A stretch of DNA of 64,000 nucleotides from Ferruginibacter sp. (GTDB lineage: Bacteria; Bacteroidota; Bacteroidia; Chitinophagales; Chitinophagaceae). This document shows, in pieces, positions 12,652 through 24,115 of the stretch. Made by a program: the position numbers and the translations under genes. The stretch is from the NCBI GenBank assembly GCA_030655145.1, contig JAURWD010000291.1, forward strand, positions 1,181 through 65,180, given 5' to 3'. Under the pieces are notes generated by a model. That model ran no database searches, was not told where the DNA came from, and was given only the letters and a program-made list of their open reading frames with translations. Each line of letters starts with the position of its first letter. Position 1 is the stretch's first letter.

Positions 12652-13581
12652 TCAAATTTTTGTAAGATAACGGTCAATAAACCGTTTGAAGGGTGGGAGT
12701 TTCAGTAACACCAGTTGAAAAAGAGCGATACCGGAAACGGCACAGGCGATGCCGGCAAGCACATCGATGATGTAATGGTGACTTGTATAAACTGCAGCGA
12801 ACCAGATACCTGCCGCGACGATAAAAAATACCCAGTTCATCCAGCCAAGTTTTTTCTGCATGGCATAGTAAAGCACAATCAGCGGGTAAGATGAATGTAA
12901 AGAGGGCATAGCGGCGAACACATTGGAACTCTTTTCATACAAACTTTTAAACACACCCGTGTTGAAGTACTCATCAAATTTATGCAGCCCGGCTGTATTA
13001 CCATTGGTGCCCTGGATAAATTCTGTGCCGTGAAGTTGGTAGTACCAGGGTGGGGCAGCGGGGTACACATAATAGATCACGAAGCCCAGCAAATTTACCA
13101 GCACAAACGTGAGTGCGAAGTGAAGAAATATTTTTTTGTCCACGAAGAACAGGTAGGCTGCAAATGCCAGTGGTACCGGTATCCAGCATAAATAAAACAG
13201 GCCCGAGAGTACATCAAGAAACGTGGTTCCATTCAACAGCCAGTATTCATTGGGCGTAACGACATTGCCGGCATAGTTAAATCCAAATAGTTGTTTTTCA
13301 GCCTGGTAGAGTTCCCCGATACGTACTTCATTCACCGTGTAATTGGGAAAGGCCTTCATATAATCGAACAGGATCCAATACACAATGAAAATAGCAAAAC
13401 CGGTTATGAATTTCCTGCTAATGGTCGAAGAAAAAAAGCACCCGTTGAAGAGGCCAACGAGGAAGAGTTGGTCCGTTTTAAAGCCAATTAAAAAAAAAGA
13501 AAATAAGAGATAGCCAAGGGAAAGAGCGAGAGATAATAAAATGTTGTTGATGGAAAACAACCGCGGATCTCTCGTTTGCAT
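12652..13581 (-). CDS. PAP2-superfamily membrane enzyme, inositol-phosphorylceramide/sphingomyelin-synthase-like
   Basis: The protein is polytopic and carries the lipid-phosphate-phosphatase C2/C3 motifs (PSLHSSYP and SHHYIIDVLAG). I set the start at the ATG at 13581 (MQTRDP); this gives a TGATG one-nt overlap with the upstream stop. The longer ORF reaches 13632. Confidence 0.8.
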   Translation of the reverse strand: MQTRDPRLFSINNILLSLALSLGYLLFSFFLIGFKTDQLFLVGLFNGCFFSSTISRKFITGFAIFIVYWILFDYMKAFPNYTVNEVRIGELYQAEKQLFGFNYAGNVVTPNEYWLLNGTTFLDVLSGLFYLCWIPVPLAFAAYLFFVDKKIFLHFALTFVLVNLLGFVIYYVYPAAPPWYYQLHGTEFIQGTNGNTAGLHKFDEYFNTGVFKSLYEKSSNVFAAMPSLHSSYPLIVLYYAMQKKLGWMNWVFFIVAAGIWFAAVYTSHHYIIDVLAGIACAVSGIALFQLVLLKLPPFKRFIDRYLTKI

Positions 13582-14210
13582 CAACTTTTTGTAGGTTGTT
13601 TTTCGAAATCCGATTTCATGACAATATCCCACAGGGAGGAGCTTACGCCATATCCTTTACTTGCATCCTGGTAATGGTGCAACATATGATGTTGCTTGAT
13701 TTTTTTTAAGACCGGGTGTTTAAAATTGTGGTGATGCATGGCATAATGCATCATGTCATAAAACAGGTACCCGAGCAGGAAGCCAGGGAAAAATGAAAAC
13801 AAAAACTGCCTGTCCAGGAAAAGAGAAAACAGCACGTAGAAAAGCGTTGCAAGAGGAATGCTTGCCGCTGGTGGCATCACTAACCTCTTTTTATCCCGTG
13901 GGTAATCATGATGAACTCCGTGAAAAATAAAATGGATCTTCTTTCCAAACTCGGAGGTAGGATGATAATGAAAAACAAAACGGTGCAGGACATATTCGGT
14001 GATGGTCCAGATGATCAAGCCACCAACAAAATATAAGGCAAAGTCTCCCAGGCTGATGCCGTTTGAAAAAGCACCATACGTGAAAAATAATATTGCGGGA
14101 ATGAAGATATACAGTGGTACAGTATAGTGGACTTTCGAAAGGCTGTTAAAAAGATTGCTTTTAAACAGTTTGATTGATTCTTCCGAATTTGACACGTAAT
14201 TCTTTTTCAT
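13581..14210 (-). CDS. Fatty-acid hydroxylase/sterol-desaturase-superfamily membrane di-iron enzyme
   Basis: Four His boxes are visible: HRFVFHYH, HGVHHDYP, HYAMHHH and HHMLHH. TM segments are present. Confidence 0.85.
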   Translation of the reverse strand: MKKNYVSNSEESIKLFKSNLFNSLSKVHYTVPLYIFIPAILFFTYGAFSNGISLGDFALYFVGGLIIWTITEYVLHRFVFHYHPTSEFGKKIHFIFHGVHHDYPRDKKRLVMPPAASIPLATLFYVLFSLFLDRQFLFSFFPGFLLGYLFYDMMHYAMHHHNFKHPVLKKIKQHHMLHHYQDASKGYGVSSSLWDIVMKSDFEKQPTKS

Positions 14211-14229
14211 CTTTAATTATTGCTTGTGG

Positions 14230-14763
14230 TCAAATTTTTAATTTCTCCCTGATCACCAACCGGCTTGCAGGCTCAATCCCGGAAACCTCAACATACTCGA
14301 TGTTCGGCGACCAGAAAGAACCACCTTCTTTGATCTTTAAAAAAATACTGGTAAGCATCACCTTCTTATTATTGATAATCGTGTAAACGCTTAATTTTTT
14401 ATCCGGACCTGGTTCCAGGTACATCTTATATTTTTTATAAGAAACGAACCGGAGTTCGTAGCGGTTATCTGCCAGTTTCGTGGTTTTTATCCCGTATGCA
14501 AACTTGCGCTGTATATAACTCAGTTCCTGCCGTTGTCCATTTTCCTGGTACCGGATCCAAAACTCGTGAATTGGATTCTCCCGGTCGATCTCACCGTTCT
14601 TATAGTTCAGCTCGTAAACGATCGTATTGGTATTTGGCGTGCGCTGCAGGTAAAACAATTGTTTCTGGTTGCCCATTGGTACCGGGAAACCATTTTGCGC
14701 TTCGGCTGCAAAATTAAGGCTTATAAAAAGGAAAATGAATAAAGGGAATTTCTTTAAATACAT
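14230..14763 (-). CDS. Secreted protein of unknown function (DUF4833-like; label from memory)
   Basis: The signal peptide is MYLKKFPLFIFLFISLNFAAEAQ. The ~155-aa mature domain has no recognisable catalytic motif. The gene sits 2 nt downstream of the CDP-alcohol transferase gene. Confidence 0.7.
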   Translation of the reverse strand: MYLKKFPLFIFLFISLNFAAEAQNGFPVPMGNQKQLFYLQRTPNTNTIVYELNYKNGEIDRENPIHEFWIRYQENGQRQELSYIQRKFAYGIKTTKLADNRYELRFVSYKKYKMYLEPGPDKKLSVYTIINNKKVMLTSIFLKIKEGGSFWSPNIEYVEVSGIEPASRLVIREKLKI

Positions 14764-14765
14764 GA

Positions 14766-22359: not shown

Positions 22360-23567
22360 GCTCTTTCCTTATTTAACTGCGGAACTTTTAGTTTAAATGA
22401 AACCTTTTTGATTTTTTCTACCGCATAATCAATTTGCTTGAAAGAATGCGTCGCCATCAATGAAAAACGAATCATCGAAGAATCGTTGTTTACTGCCGGA
22501 GATACCACCGGGTTAACAAAAATTCCTTCATCCATAAGCATTTTGGCCATAAGGAAGGTCTTTTCATTATCACGTACGAAAATTGGAATGATCGGGGATT
22601 CAGTAGCACCAATATCAAAGCCTGCTTTGGTAAACGCTTCCAGGGCGTAATGAGTATTCTGCCAAAGTTTTTCCAGGCGTTGCGGTTCTTCTTTCAACAC
22701 ATTCAAGGCTGCTAAAGCGCTGGCCGTAGCCGCTGGAGAAATGCTTGCACTAAACATGAGTGAACGGGCATGGTGCTTCAAGTATTCGATCACTGGTTTG
22801 TCGGCAGCGATAAAACCACCAATGGAAGCCAGGGATTTGCTAAAGGTTCCCATAATAAGGTCAACCTTATGTGTAATATTAAAATGGGCTGCTGTACCCT
22901 GACCTGCGGGTCCGAGAACACCCAGTGAATGAGCGTCATCTACGAAAACCGCGGCATTGTATTTTTTCGCGAGGGCAGTAATTTCATTCAGTTTGGTAAT
23001 ATCACCTTCCATACTGAATACGCCATCTGTTGCAATTATTTTAAAAGCCTCGATAGGAACTGAGGCCAGTAATTTTTCAAGATGCGCCATGTCGCCATGA
23101 CCAAACTTATACAGCTTTGAAAAAGATAAGCGGGCACCGTCGATGATACAGGCGTGATTTAATTCGTCAGAAAACAAAAAATCGTTTCTCCCACCAAGGG
23201 CGGAAATTACGCCCAGGTTAACCTGGTAGCCGGTACTGAAAACCAGTGCAGCTTCTTTTCCAACAAATTGTGCAAGTGCTTCTTCCAGTTCAATGTGGAG
23301 ATCAAGCGTTCCGTTCAAAAACCTGGAACCTGCGCAACCACTACCATACTTATCAATTGCTTTTTTAGCCGCCTCTTTTACGCGGGAATGGTTAGTAAGA
23401 CCGAGGTAACTGTTTGACCCAAACATCAGGACGCGTTTTCCGTCGATAATTACTTCTGTGTCCTGGTCAGACTCCAATGGTCGGAAGAAGGGGTAAATGT
23501 CTGCGGCCTTAAGTTTGTCAACAGTCTTAAAAGCATTTACCTTGTCAATCAGCGTTTTATTACTCAT
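22356..23567 (-). CDS. Alpha-oxoamine synthase (PLP-dependent), serine-palmitoyltransferase-like
   Basis: The ~400-aa product follows the BioF/Kbl/SPT family pattern: GSNSYLGL, the [14 protein letters not shown]-type region, DDAHS and the PLP-lysine motif [13 protein letters not shown]. No biotin or threonine-catabolism genes are nearby. Confidence 0.88.
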
Positions 23568-23602
23568 TGTGTTGTTTTAAAGTGTTTTCTTTAAGCTTGA
23601 TA

Positions 23603-23618
23603 TCTATTGAAAAATAGA
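23603..23618. promoter_or_regulatory. Inverted repeat TCTATT-N4-AATAGA upstream of the lipid operon (candidate operator)
   Basis: A perfect 6-bp inverted repeat sits 36-51 nt upstream of the SPT-like ATG. It lies in the AT-rich 107-bp gap between the MarR gene and the operon. Confidence 0.25.
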
Positions 23619-23674
23619 ATTTATTATAATGGTAAACTTATATTTTTTATAAAGTTAATCAGTAACTGTTTTGC

Positions 23675-24115
23675 TTATTTGCATTTTTGTTGAATTTTTG
23701 CTAACACGCACATACAAGTGTTAAGATCTTCTTCATTAATTCCGTCTTTCAACACTTCATCCTGGTCCAGGAATTTGTTGTGCATCTCATCGATGATCGC
23801 CTTCCCGGTACTCGTCAGTTCGATCACATTTTTCCGCCTGTCGCCTGCAACCGGCACACGCTTCACAAATCCTTTTTCTTCTAATATGTCGATAGACCGT
23901 AAAATGGCAGATTTGGTTTTGTCCATTACCGAAGCAATGTCCTGCTGGATGAGTTCCTTGTTGTTACTCCTTGATATATAATACAGCACGCCCATTTGCT
24001 CAAAGGTAATATCGACTGTTAGACCGGAAAATGTTCCATTTATGGTCTTGAGTAACAATTTACCTGTGTGAACAATCATAAACCCCAAAGTATCCGGCAT
24101 TTCAGTACAGTGCAT
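23675..24115 (-). CDS. MarR-family transcriptional regulator
   Basis: The winged-HTH core is visible (FEQMGVLYYISRS...QQDIASVMDKTKSAILRSIDILEEKGFVKRVPVAGDRRKNVIELT). Alternative ATG starts exist a few codons in. Confidence 0.88.
   Translation of the reverse strand: MHCTEMPDTLGFMIVHTGKLLLKTINGTFSGLTVDITFEQMGVLYYISRSNNKELIQQDIASVMDKTKSAILRSIDILEEKGFVKRVPVAGDRRKNVIELTSTGKAIIDEMHNKFLDQDEVLKDGINEEDLNTCMCVLAKIQQKCK

Follow-up and report, generated by a model that had tools for sequence, protein, structure and literature searches.

The locus described here lies in a stretch of 64,000 nt from Ferruginibacter sp. (contig JAURWD010000291.1 of assembly GCA_030655145.1), referred to below as the window, and consists of eleven genes that follow one another on the minus strand from position 23567 to position 12652 with a marR gene ahead of them, as seen in the table of open reading frames (ORFs) (Table 1). 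All eleven genes are separated by overlaps or by gaps of at most 47 nt: recomputed from the coordinates and read 5' to 3' along the operon, the successive junctions are -4, -4, +47, -4, 0, -14, 0, +2, +19 and -1 nt, the figure of -14 presuming that the DUF5686 protein starts at 18047 and has 848 aa, as in public annotations. A preliminary description of this DNA had read the genes as a ceramide triad joined to an inositol-lipid module and as a candidate pathway to inositol phosphorylceramide (IPC), and its eleven genes, its junction figures and its spacing of 107 nt between marR and spt were all reproduced on recomputation. Each of the families named there is retrieved by Pfam above the gathering score, the GNAT match being weak, and along the locus these are Aminotran_1_2, GNAT, Epimerase, NAD_binding_5 with Inos-1-P_synth, PgpA, GtrA, DUF5686 with CarboxypepD_reg, CDP-OH_P_transf, DUF4833, FA_hydroxylase and PAP2_3.

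Table 1. Features of the locus, given as window positions, and related fusion genes, given as positions within the named census loci.
Feature	Coordinates	Strand	Evidence or remark
marR	23675..24115	-	Pfam MarR_2 4.4e-12; 107 nt upstream of spt
spt, serine palmitoyltransferase	22356..23567	-	NF047600 667 bits; PLP lysine in GTFSK
bCerS/YghO/'aca' homologue, soluble GNAT-type N-acyltransferase	21238..22359	-	37% identity to E. coli YghO
Extended SDR, CerR/'epi' 3-keto reductase homologue	20255..21241	-	Pfam Epimerase 1e-30; GxxGxxG + YxxxK
MIPS, myo-inositol-1-phosphate synthase (long, eukaryote-like form)	18882..20207	-	Pfam NAD_binding_5 1e-103, Inos-1-P_synth 4e-32
PgpA-family phosphatase, BT_1525 position	18427..18885	-	Pfam PgpA 2.5e-35
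GtrA-family small membrane protein, BT_1524 position	18034..18426	-	Pfam GtrA_DPMS_TM 2.8e-16
DUF5686 outer-membrane protein	15501..18068 (likely start 18047, 848 aa)	-	Pfam; AF2 model; Foldseek
PIP synthase (PIPS), BT_1523 type	14766..15500	-	NF052561 393 bits; CDP-alcohol motif
DUF4833 protein	14230..14763	-	Pfam 9e-45
Scs7/FA2H-type hydroxylase, 209 aa	13581..14210	-	PDB 4zr1 2e-31
PAP2_3 protein, BT_1522/Aur1 type	12652..13581 (ATG start; GTG start at 13632)	-	yeast AUR1 in PDB, E 5e-17
Hairpin, 11-bp stem, between operon end and glnA	12561..12595	-	RNA fold -18.6 kcal/mol, z = -3.8
Conserved promoter/operator region upstream of marR	24116..24190	-	-7 box + conservation in 11 related loci
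PIPS-DUF4833 fusion in loci L022-L025, L027-L030, L032-L035, L037, L038, L044, L045, L060, L066, L075, L078, L080	about 14720-16050 in each		

The operon opens with an alpha-oxoamine synthase (AOS), for which a role like that of serine palmitoyltransferase (SPT) had been proposed. Against the NCBIfam equivalog model of the CFB-type SPT (NF047600) the protein scores 667 bits, which exceeds the cutoff of 640, while it stays below the respective cutoffs of the models for Kbl, BioF, ALAS and other SPT-type enzymes. Among solved structures, the SPT of Sphingobacterium multivorum is the best match with 546 bits, as compared with 314 bits for a BioF/Kbl fusion enzyme, 267 for Kbl and 250 for a cysteate-C-fatty acyltransferase, and the motif of the pyridoxal phosphate (PLP) lysine reads GTFSK. 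The equivalog score and the match to the Sphingobacterium enzyme bear out the proposed assignment; a grouping of the AOS with BioF, Kbl or cysteate enzymes, which the preliminary description had named as the result that would speak against it, is seen neither in the profile scores nor in the scores against the PDB. Judged by its sequence, the AOS is a serine palmitoyltransferase (Spt).

The product of the second gene is a GNAT-like protein that aligns pairwise with E. coli YghO over 373 of 380 residues (37% identity, E 7e-80), and a translated search yielded full-length homologues with 33-37% identity in plasmid records. Next to yghO, E. coli encodes an aminotransferase, an acyl carrier protein (ACP), an epimerase/dehydratase and a fatty acyl-AMP ligase; on the Streptomyces plasmid the order is aminotransferase-GNAT-epimerase as in the window, and in Aureispira the homologue adjoins an aminotransferase and an oxidoreductase. 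A bCerS-type gene beside spt and an epimerase-type gene is found in the window, in E. coli, Streptomyces and Aureispira and in 24 related loci. In one published list (PMC9386255), yghO (ECD_02850) and Caulobacter CC_1154 are both entered as 'aca' (bCerS), a dihydroceramide N-acyltransferase. Because of this equation and of the YghO bridge, we identify the GNAT-like protein from its sequence as a homologue of the ceramide synthase bCerS/YghO, with N-acylation of 3-ketosphinganine or sphinganine as the predicted activity, the link to Caulobacter bCerS running via E. coli YghO. The protein has no match in NCBIfam, where no curated HMM exists, a sequence search of the PDB returned no relative, and a large protein search returned close relatives only, which carry no functional names. 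Three records labelled as E. coli plasmids look like mislabelled chromosomal sequence: NZ_MG591698.1 (L081), which has 353 kb and on which the yghO sphingolipid-type cluster is accompanied by lptF/lptG and the glc operon, and NZ_CP141089.1 and NZ_OL790696.1, with 4.8-4.9 Mb.

The third gene encodes an extended SDR with full-length similarity to the epi proteins of E. coli (27% identity, E 1e-34) and Streptomyces (33% identity, E 1e-42); its Rossmann motif begins at residue 9, and both GxxGxxG and YxxxK are present. The GNAT acyltransferase and the extended SDR recognised at the outset are retained as homologues of YghO/bCerS and CerR/epi, respectively. A hydropathy analysis of the SDR gave no signal peptide, transmembrane segment or hydrophobic segment, and the enzyme is predicted to be cytoplasmic, or to be exported by an unrecognised route; Spt and bCerS are likewise devoid of transmembrane segments and signal peptides.

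Within the inositol module, the phosphatidylinositol phosphate (PIP) synthase (PIPS) passes the BT_1523-based equivalog model NF052561 with 393 bits at a cutoff of 350, and it contains the exact CDP-alcohol motif D(x2)DG(x2)AR(x8)G(x3)D(x3)D, as had been read from the sequence before. For the PAP2 protein, yeast Aur1 is the sole match in the PDB (E 5e-17), with the catalytic motifs PSLH (243) and HHYIID (285) aligning with PSxH and HHYxxD of Aur1 (C2, C3), and the protein aligns with positions 11-303 of the 305 positions of the BT_1522-type model NF052609 (E 2e-97). On these alignments the protein is a divergent BT_1522/Aur1 homologue and not a certified equivalog, and its previous label as PAP2/IPC-synthase-like is upheld in this form. 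The hydroxylase matches yeast Scs7p (PDB 4zr1) with E 2e-31, residues 15-198 aligning with residues 185-368 of Scs7p, and all four His boxes are present (HRFVFH, HFIFHGVHH, HYAMHHH and HHMLHH). Scs7p is the 2-hydroxylase of very-long-chain fatty acids of yeast ceramide, and Aur1 is the catalytic subunit of IPC synthase. We assign the window enzyme, from sequence, as a ceramide fatty-acyl 2-hydroxylase of the Scs7/FA2H type; its alignment covers the hydroxylase domain of Scs7p only, and since no N-terminal cytochrome b5 domain is present, an external electron donor would be required. Catalytic motifs are intact throughout the enzymes of the operon. A plus-strand ORF of 202 aa at 19609-20217 overlaps MIPS in antisense orientation and most probably just shadows the coding sequence of that gene, which is highly conserved.

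The conservation of this arrangement was studied in a census anchored on MIPS, with one genome per species, in which 12 proteins of the window were mapped onto 80 retrieved loci, 57 of them with enough flanking sequence to be judged. The census places the window in a Ferruginibacter-like member of the Chitinophagaceae, its MIPS being 93% identical to that of metagenome-assembled genomes (MAGs). In 24 of the 57 loci the ceramide triad is fused upstream of MIPS, and 21 of these 24 show the complete order of eleven genes. The triad-fused loci span Chitinophagales and Cytophagales, and their carriers comprise Ferruginibacter MAGs, Segetibacter koreensis DSM 18137, Chryseosolibacter, Chryseolinea lacunae, Dawidia, Parachryseolinea and Ohtaekwangia as well as Cyclobacteriaceae and Flammeovirgaceae MAGs and one complete Chitinophagaceae genome; in addition, an independent JGI metagenome contig carries the same eleven genes. 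Given the triad fusion in 24 of the 57 loci, the full order in 21 and the independent contig, the gene arrangement is not due to chance, and the gene-neighbourhood census that had been suggested for the eleven-gene order shows it to recur in two orders. The remaining 33 loci, which are mostly Sediminibacterium-like with the order MIPS-PgpA-GtrA-DUF5686-PIPS-DUF4833-PAP2, carry the inositol module alone; five of them, which are Flavisolibacter-like, have a minimal set of five genes like that of B. thetaiotaomicron. Almost every locus with the triad has 11-58 nt between cerR and MIPS; in two Segetibacter MAGs the junction is widened to 863 nt (L013) and 584 nt (L015). The hydroxylase gene, which lies eight genes downstream of the triad, is present in all 24 triad-bearing loci and in none of the 33 triad-less ones. 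This tracking fits a ceramide substrate, and because the downstream hydroxylase follows the upstream triad, it suggests that the two halves act as one unit.

Both modules have counterparts in characterised systems, and the locus is not a new kind of system. Knockouts in B. thetaiotaomicron have assigned to BT_1522, BT_1523, BT_1525 and BT_1526 the formation of PIP-diacylglycerol (PIP-DAG), phosphatidylinositol-diacylglycerol (PI-DAG) and PI-dihydroceramide, with BT_1525 as the PIP-DAG phosphatase and with BT_1527, a protein with a carboxypeptidase-regulatory domain, as a conserved neighbour of BT_1522-1526 (PMC9246714). The window shares with BT_1526-BT_1522 (Heaver et al., 2022; PMC9246714) the relative order MIPS, PgpA, GtrA, PIPS, PAP2; its PIPS passes the BT_1523 model, its PAP2 protein aligns with the BT_1522 model over the full length, and DUF5686 has a carboxypeptidase-regulatory domain like BT_1527. 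However, spt-bcerS-cerR lie directly upstream of the module in the window, while the SPT of B. thetaiotaomicron, BT_0870, lies away from BT_1522-1526 (PMC9246714), in line with what the preliminary description had said of that genome. The window cluster further differs in having DUF5686 inside the cluster, the additional DUF4833 and Scs7-like hydroxylase genes and a MarR regulator, and its host is an environmental member of the Chitinophagaceae, from soil or freshwater, whereas B. thetaiotaomicron belongs to the gut Bacteroidales.

The ceramide route by Spt, bCerS and CerR was reportedly defined in Caulobacter (Stankeviciute et al., 2022). According to a paper of 2024, which cites Stankeviciute et al., sphingolipid-producing Bacteroidota do not encode the three ceramide genes near one another (PMC11334938), whereas in the window each of them overlaps the next by 4 nt. 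The route of Caulobacter and of the yghO cluster of E. coli B is made up of these three enzyme families as well (Olea-Ozuna et al., 2021; PMC9386255), and the order AOS-GNAT-epimerase of the Streptomyces plasmid locus is identical; in contrast to these, the window locus contains no dedicated ACP or acyl-ACP synthetase, and its Spt is of the Bacteroidota/deltaproteobacterial type (CFB equivalog) and not of the alphaproteobacterial type. In comparison with the IPC enzymes of yeast (Aur1, Scs7, Ino1), the PAP2 protein corresponds to Aur1 and the hydroxylase to Scs7p, MIPS is of the long eukaryote-like form, and the predicted 2-hydroxyacyl-IPC parallels yeast IPC species. Unlike in yeast, the window system has no Kei1 subunit, its hydroxylase has no cytochrome b5, its ceramide synthase is a soluble GNAT protein and not a Lag1/Lac1 TLC protein, and PI would be formed via PIP, as in the mycobacterial route, and not by a eukaryotic PI synthase. 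A search of the literature found no account of a fused ceramide-inositol cluster, nor of Chitinophagaceae in that context. A self-contained cluster of environmental Bacteroidota in which both modules are fused thus seems not to have been described before, and this also goes for the addition of the Scs7-like enzyme, the PIPS-DUF4833 fusion and the Omp85-like partner presented below.

An exact match to TAnnTTTG, a -7 box of the Bacteroidetes type (TACTTTTG), lies at 24151-24144, about 30 nt upstream of marR, and the region before marR also holds the conserved elements GCAACAGTT and GCAACTATT. In 11 related, Ferruginibacter-like loci the last ~45-70 nt before marR are kept, the remainder of the 810-nt spacer not being conserved, and the conserved stretch contains repeated GCAAC(A/T)(G/A)TT elements, which from their sequence are a plausible MarR operator; in the locus census marR was found only in the Ferruginibacter-like clade. 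Between marR and spt, between cerR and MIPS and in the operon interior, neither an exact TAnnTTTG box nor a convincing terminator was found, and scans with sigma-70 and terminator consensus sequences within the operon gave matches at chance level. The hairpin downstream of the last gene is likely a bidirectional terminator, shared with the convergent glnA. Because of the -7 box before marR, of the hairpin after the last gene and since no internal -7 box or terminator was found, a single transcript running from marR or spt through the PAP2 gene would be the simplest reading of these signals. The unit is bounded, as its neighbours, the convergent type III glutamine synthetase gene glnA and the divergent lpxB, are unrelated and lie on the opposite strand. 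The non-coding spacer between marR and lpxB (24116-24926) is, with about 810 nt, unusually long, and a strong terminator-like hairpin of 12 bp is found in it on the minus strand at 24418-24391. A scan with Rfam gave no match in or near the locus; elsewhere in the window, at 59923-60019 of the minus strand, it detected a thiamine pyrophosphate (TPP) riboswitch (RF00059), whose 60 bits exceed the gathering score.

Three genes of the operon, encoding GtrA, DUF4833 and DUF5686 proteins, had been singled out as uncharacterised. Of these, GtrA and the barrel protein already have neighbours in B. thetaiotaomicron, BT_1524 and BT_1527. Our literature search yielded no mention of DUF4833 and a single one of DUF5686, in passing, in an unrelated proteomics study. 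GtrA, which may be a flippase or have an accessory role, is present in nearly all related clusters of the census. A model of the DUF4833 protein, built with AlphaFold2 (AF2) from an alignment of 75 sequences (pLDDT 89.7, pTM 0.81), shows a signal/anchor helix at the N-terminus and, after it, an all-beta domain of 12 strands. No fold in the PDB resembled it meaningfully in a Foldseek search (best E 0.04, TM-score <0.3), and a profile search of the PDB was likewise negative. The family has ~1,575 representatives at 50% identity. In 21 loci PIPS and DUF4833 form one continuous ORF of 431-442 aa (Table 1), represented by P0362 in a protein library at 50% identity, and the linker of the fusion holds an extra hydrophobic/transmembrane segment that corresponds to the signal/anchor helix of the free-standing DUF4833. 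In P0412 (498 aa) of the same library, DUF4833 is joined via a transmembrane linker to the C-terminus of a different, sterol-desaturase-like enzyme of the FA_hydroxylase family. As a Rosetta-stone fusion, the PIPS-DUF4833 protein links DUF4833 to PIP synthase, and DUF4833 is predicted to be a periplasmic partner of this enzyme. In Sediminibacterium salmoneum (L050), a divergent second DUF4833 paralogue, followed by a 573-aa protein that has no Pfam match, is encoded at 6778-9089, upstream of an inositol cluster preceded by a TetR gene; similar DUF4833 paralogues are found in L046, L054, L056 and L063. Just downstream in L050, on the opposite strand, a small PAP2_C (sphingomyelin-synthase-like) protein is encoded at 17101-17721.

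The DUF5686 protein begins with a signal peptide, continues with a CarboxypepD_reg sandwich and a beta-rich middle part and closes with a predicted C-terminal barrel, its last residues being FDF. In a profile search of the PDB its N-terminal domain matched N-terminal extensions of SusC/TonB-dependent transporters, and no other region of the protein was matched. All of the 50 top Foldseek matches of its AF2 model, which is of moderate quality (pLDDT 67.9, pTM 0.45), are Omp85 barrels such as BamA, Sam50 and Toc75 (E ~1e-7, target TM-score <=0.61), and the predicted barrel superposes on BamA barrels with a Foldseek probability of 1.0 and shares with the Omp85 superfamily (BamA/TamA/Sam50/Toc75) a C-terminal aromatic residue. 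It differs from this superfamily in that no Pfam Omp85 or POTRA match and no Omp85 signal at the sequence level were found and in that its N-terminus is formed by CarboxypepD_reg and the beta-rich domain. We therefore describe the modelled barrel, with moderate confidence, as Omp85-like and do not claim membership of the superfamily. DUF5686 and DUF4833 occur together in 47 of the ~50 loci that have either of them. The fusions and this co-occurrence argue for a tie of the accessory proteins to membrane lipid enzymes, GtrA being a weaker candidate for envelope steps than DUF4833 and DUF5686.

From the enzyme families and their conservation we infer the following sequence of reactions. Spt would condense serine with acyl-CoA to 3-ketosphinganine, the YghO/bCerS-type acyltransferase would add the N-acyl chain and the CerR-type SDR would reduce the 3-keto group, either order of the latter two being conceivable here as in Caulobacter, so that the three soluble enzymes would make dihydroceramide at the cytoplasmic face. 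The Scs7-like enzyme, a di-iron membrane hydroxylase, would introduce a 2-hydroxyl group into the amide-linked acyl chain. In parallel, MIPS would convert glucose-6-phosphate to inositol phosphate, which PIP synthase would join to CDP-diacylglycerol and from which, after the action of the PgpA-like phosphatase, phosphatidylinositol (PI) would result. Finally, the Aur1/BT_1522-like PAP2 protein would move phosphoinositol from PI to the (hydroxy)dihydroceramide and set diacylglycerol free. CdsA, the supply of acyl-CoA and the electron donor would come from elsewhere in the genome. With lower confidence, GtrA may act in flipping at the inner membrane, DUF4833 in periplasmic handling beside PIP synthase and DUF5686 in a step at the outer membrane. 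Judged from the gene content, 2-hydroxyacyl inositol-phosphoryl-dihydroceramide is the most likely product.

Taken together, it is in our view highly probable that the locus is a conserved operon whose genes supply the dedicated enzymes to make this lipid de novo and which in the Ferruginibacter clade is MarR-controlled. The interpretation given in the preliminary description, a ceramide triad and an inositol-lipid module forming an IPC pathway, is thereby supported, each of its enzyme assignments having held. Its further statement that every step lies in one transcription unit applies to the dedicated enzyme families, all of which are present, but not to CDP-diacylglycerol synthase, acyl-CoA supply and the electron donor of the hydroxylase, which lie outside the operon. 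Several observations weigh against our interpretation. The operon has no CdsA and no reductase or other electron donor for the hydroxylase, and the PAP2 protein scores 326 bits against NF052609, below the cutoff of 480. The SDR of the window has no signal peptide, while for CerR of Caulobacter a periplasmic location has been reported (PMC11087976). Many relatives (33 of 57) carry the inositol module alone, and the gaps of 107 nt between marR and spt and of 47 nt between the SDR gene and MIPS could be sites of internal promoters. As to the accessory proteins, the minimal Flavisolibacter clusters have neither DUF5686 nor DUF4833, the confidence of the DUF5686 model is no more than moderate (pLDDT 68, pTM 0.45), and deletion of the GtrA gene BT_1524 in B. 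thetaiotaomicron gave no lipid phenotype on thin-layer chromatography (PMC9246714). Finally, both transcript and lipid are predictions from the gene sequences.

Some of these points would equally suit an arrangement of two merely adjacent operons, one for ceramide (spt-bcerS-cerR) and one for inositol lipids, each with its own promoter and linked only metabolically: the 47 nt at the module boundary are untranslated, the triad is absent from those 33 relatives, the SPT of B. thetaiotaomicron is encoded far from BT_1522-1526, and 584-863 nt separate the halves in the two Segetibacter MAGs. Yet the 47-nt gap contains neither a terminator-like hairpin nor an exact TAnnTTTG box, the gap is steady at 11-58 nt over about 30 loci of two orders, and the perfect tracking of the upstream triad by the downstream hydroxylase speaks for halves that are inherited and selected together; two independent units are in our judgement quite unlikely. 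That the AOS is instead a cysteate or glycine acyltransferase, the triad then making a sulfonolipid of the capnine type or another aminolipid, is a thought that arises since Bacteroidota make sulfonolipids with SPT paralogues and since all alpha-oxoamine synthases cross-match one another. It is extremely improbable in view of the SPT equivalog score (667 against 640 bits) with the other AOS models under their cutoffs, of the 546 bits to the crystallised Sphingobacterium SPT against 250 bits to the cysteate-C-fatty acyltransferase, and of the position of the AOS gene beside the bCerS and CerR homologues in an operon that also encodes an Aur1-like enzyme. We reject the assignment of this AOS as BioF, Kbl or a cysteate acyltransferase on the same scores.

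Closer to being an alternative is the view that GtrA, DUF4833 and DUF5686 serve inositol-containing surface glycans, a capsule or a generic outer-membrane function and not lipid transport. The GtrA family is classically tied to polysaccharide modification, inositol has been detected in the capsule of B. thetaiotaomicron and its inositol lipids were normal on thin-layer chromatography after deletion of BT_1524 (PMC9246714), minimal clusters do without DUF5686 and DUF4833, and DUF5686 is a large family (1413 matches) with members also outside inositol loci. However, DUF4833 is fused to integral-membrane lipid enzymes and not to glycosyltransferases, namely to PIP synthase (21 loci) and, in another lineage, to a lipid hydroxylase; of the ~50 loci with DUF5686 or DUF4833, 47 have both, and no glycosyltransferase is encoded within the operon, so that we regard a function in glycans or in the outer membrane at large as conceivable but rather doubtful. 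Going beyond biosynthesis, a hitherto unrecognised trans-envelope route for inositol lipids and sphingolipids can be drawn up, in which GtrA would be an inner-membrane flippase, DUF4833 would be a periplasmic beta domain of new fold docked on PIP synthase or fused to it, and DUF5686, as a POTRA-less Omp85-like outer-membrane barrel, would insert the lipid at the cell surface or expose it there, the whole being Lpt-like for sphingolipids; this we put forward as speculation that is unlikely to hold.

In bacteria, sphingolipids and inositol lipids are important for the integrity of the envelope and for interaction with the host. In the Bacteroidota studied, their genes are dispersed, and in this phylum the steps to ceramide are still under debate. 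The locus supports bCerS/CerR-type genes as the ceramide route of environmental Bacteroidota and predicts yeast-like 2-hydroxy-IPC in bacteria. The whole dedicated pathway is contained in ~11 kb and is also present in cultured strains, and it could be moved as one piece for heterologous IPC synthesis. How sphingolipids are flipped and delivered to the outer membrane is explicitly an open question (PMC10191378), and the fusions and the strict co-occurrence nominate DUF4833 and DUF5686 as candidates for the missing envelope steps. If true, the trans-envelope route would explain by what means the sphingolipids of Bacteroidota reach the outer membrane.

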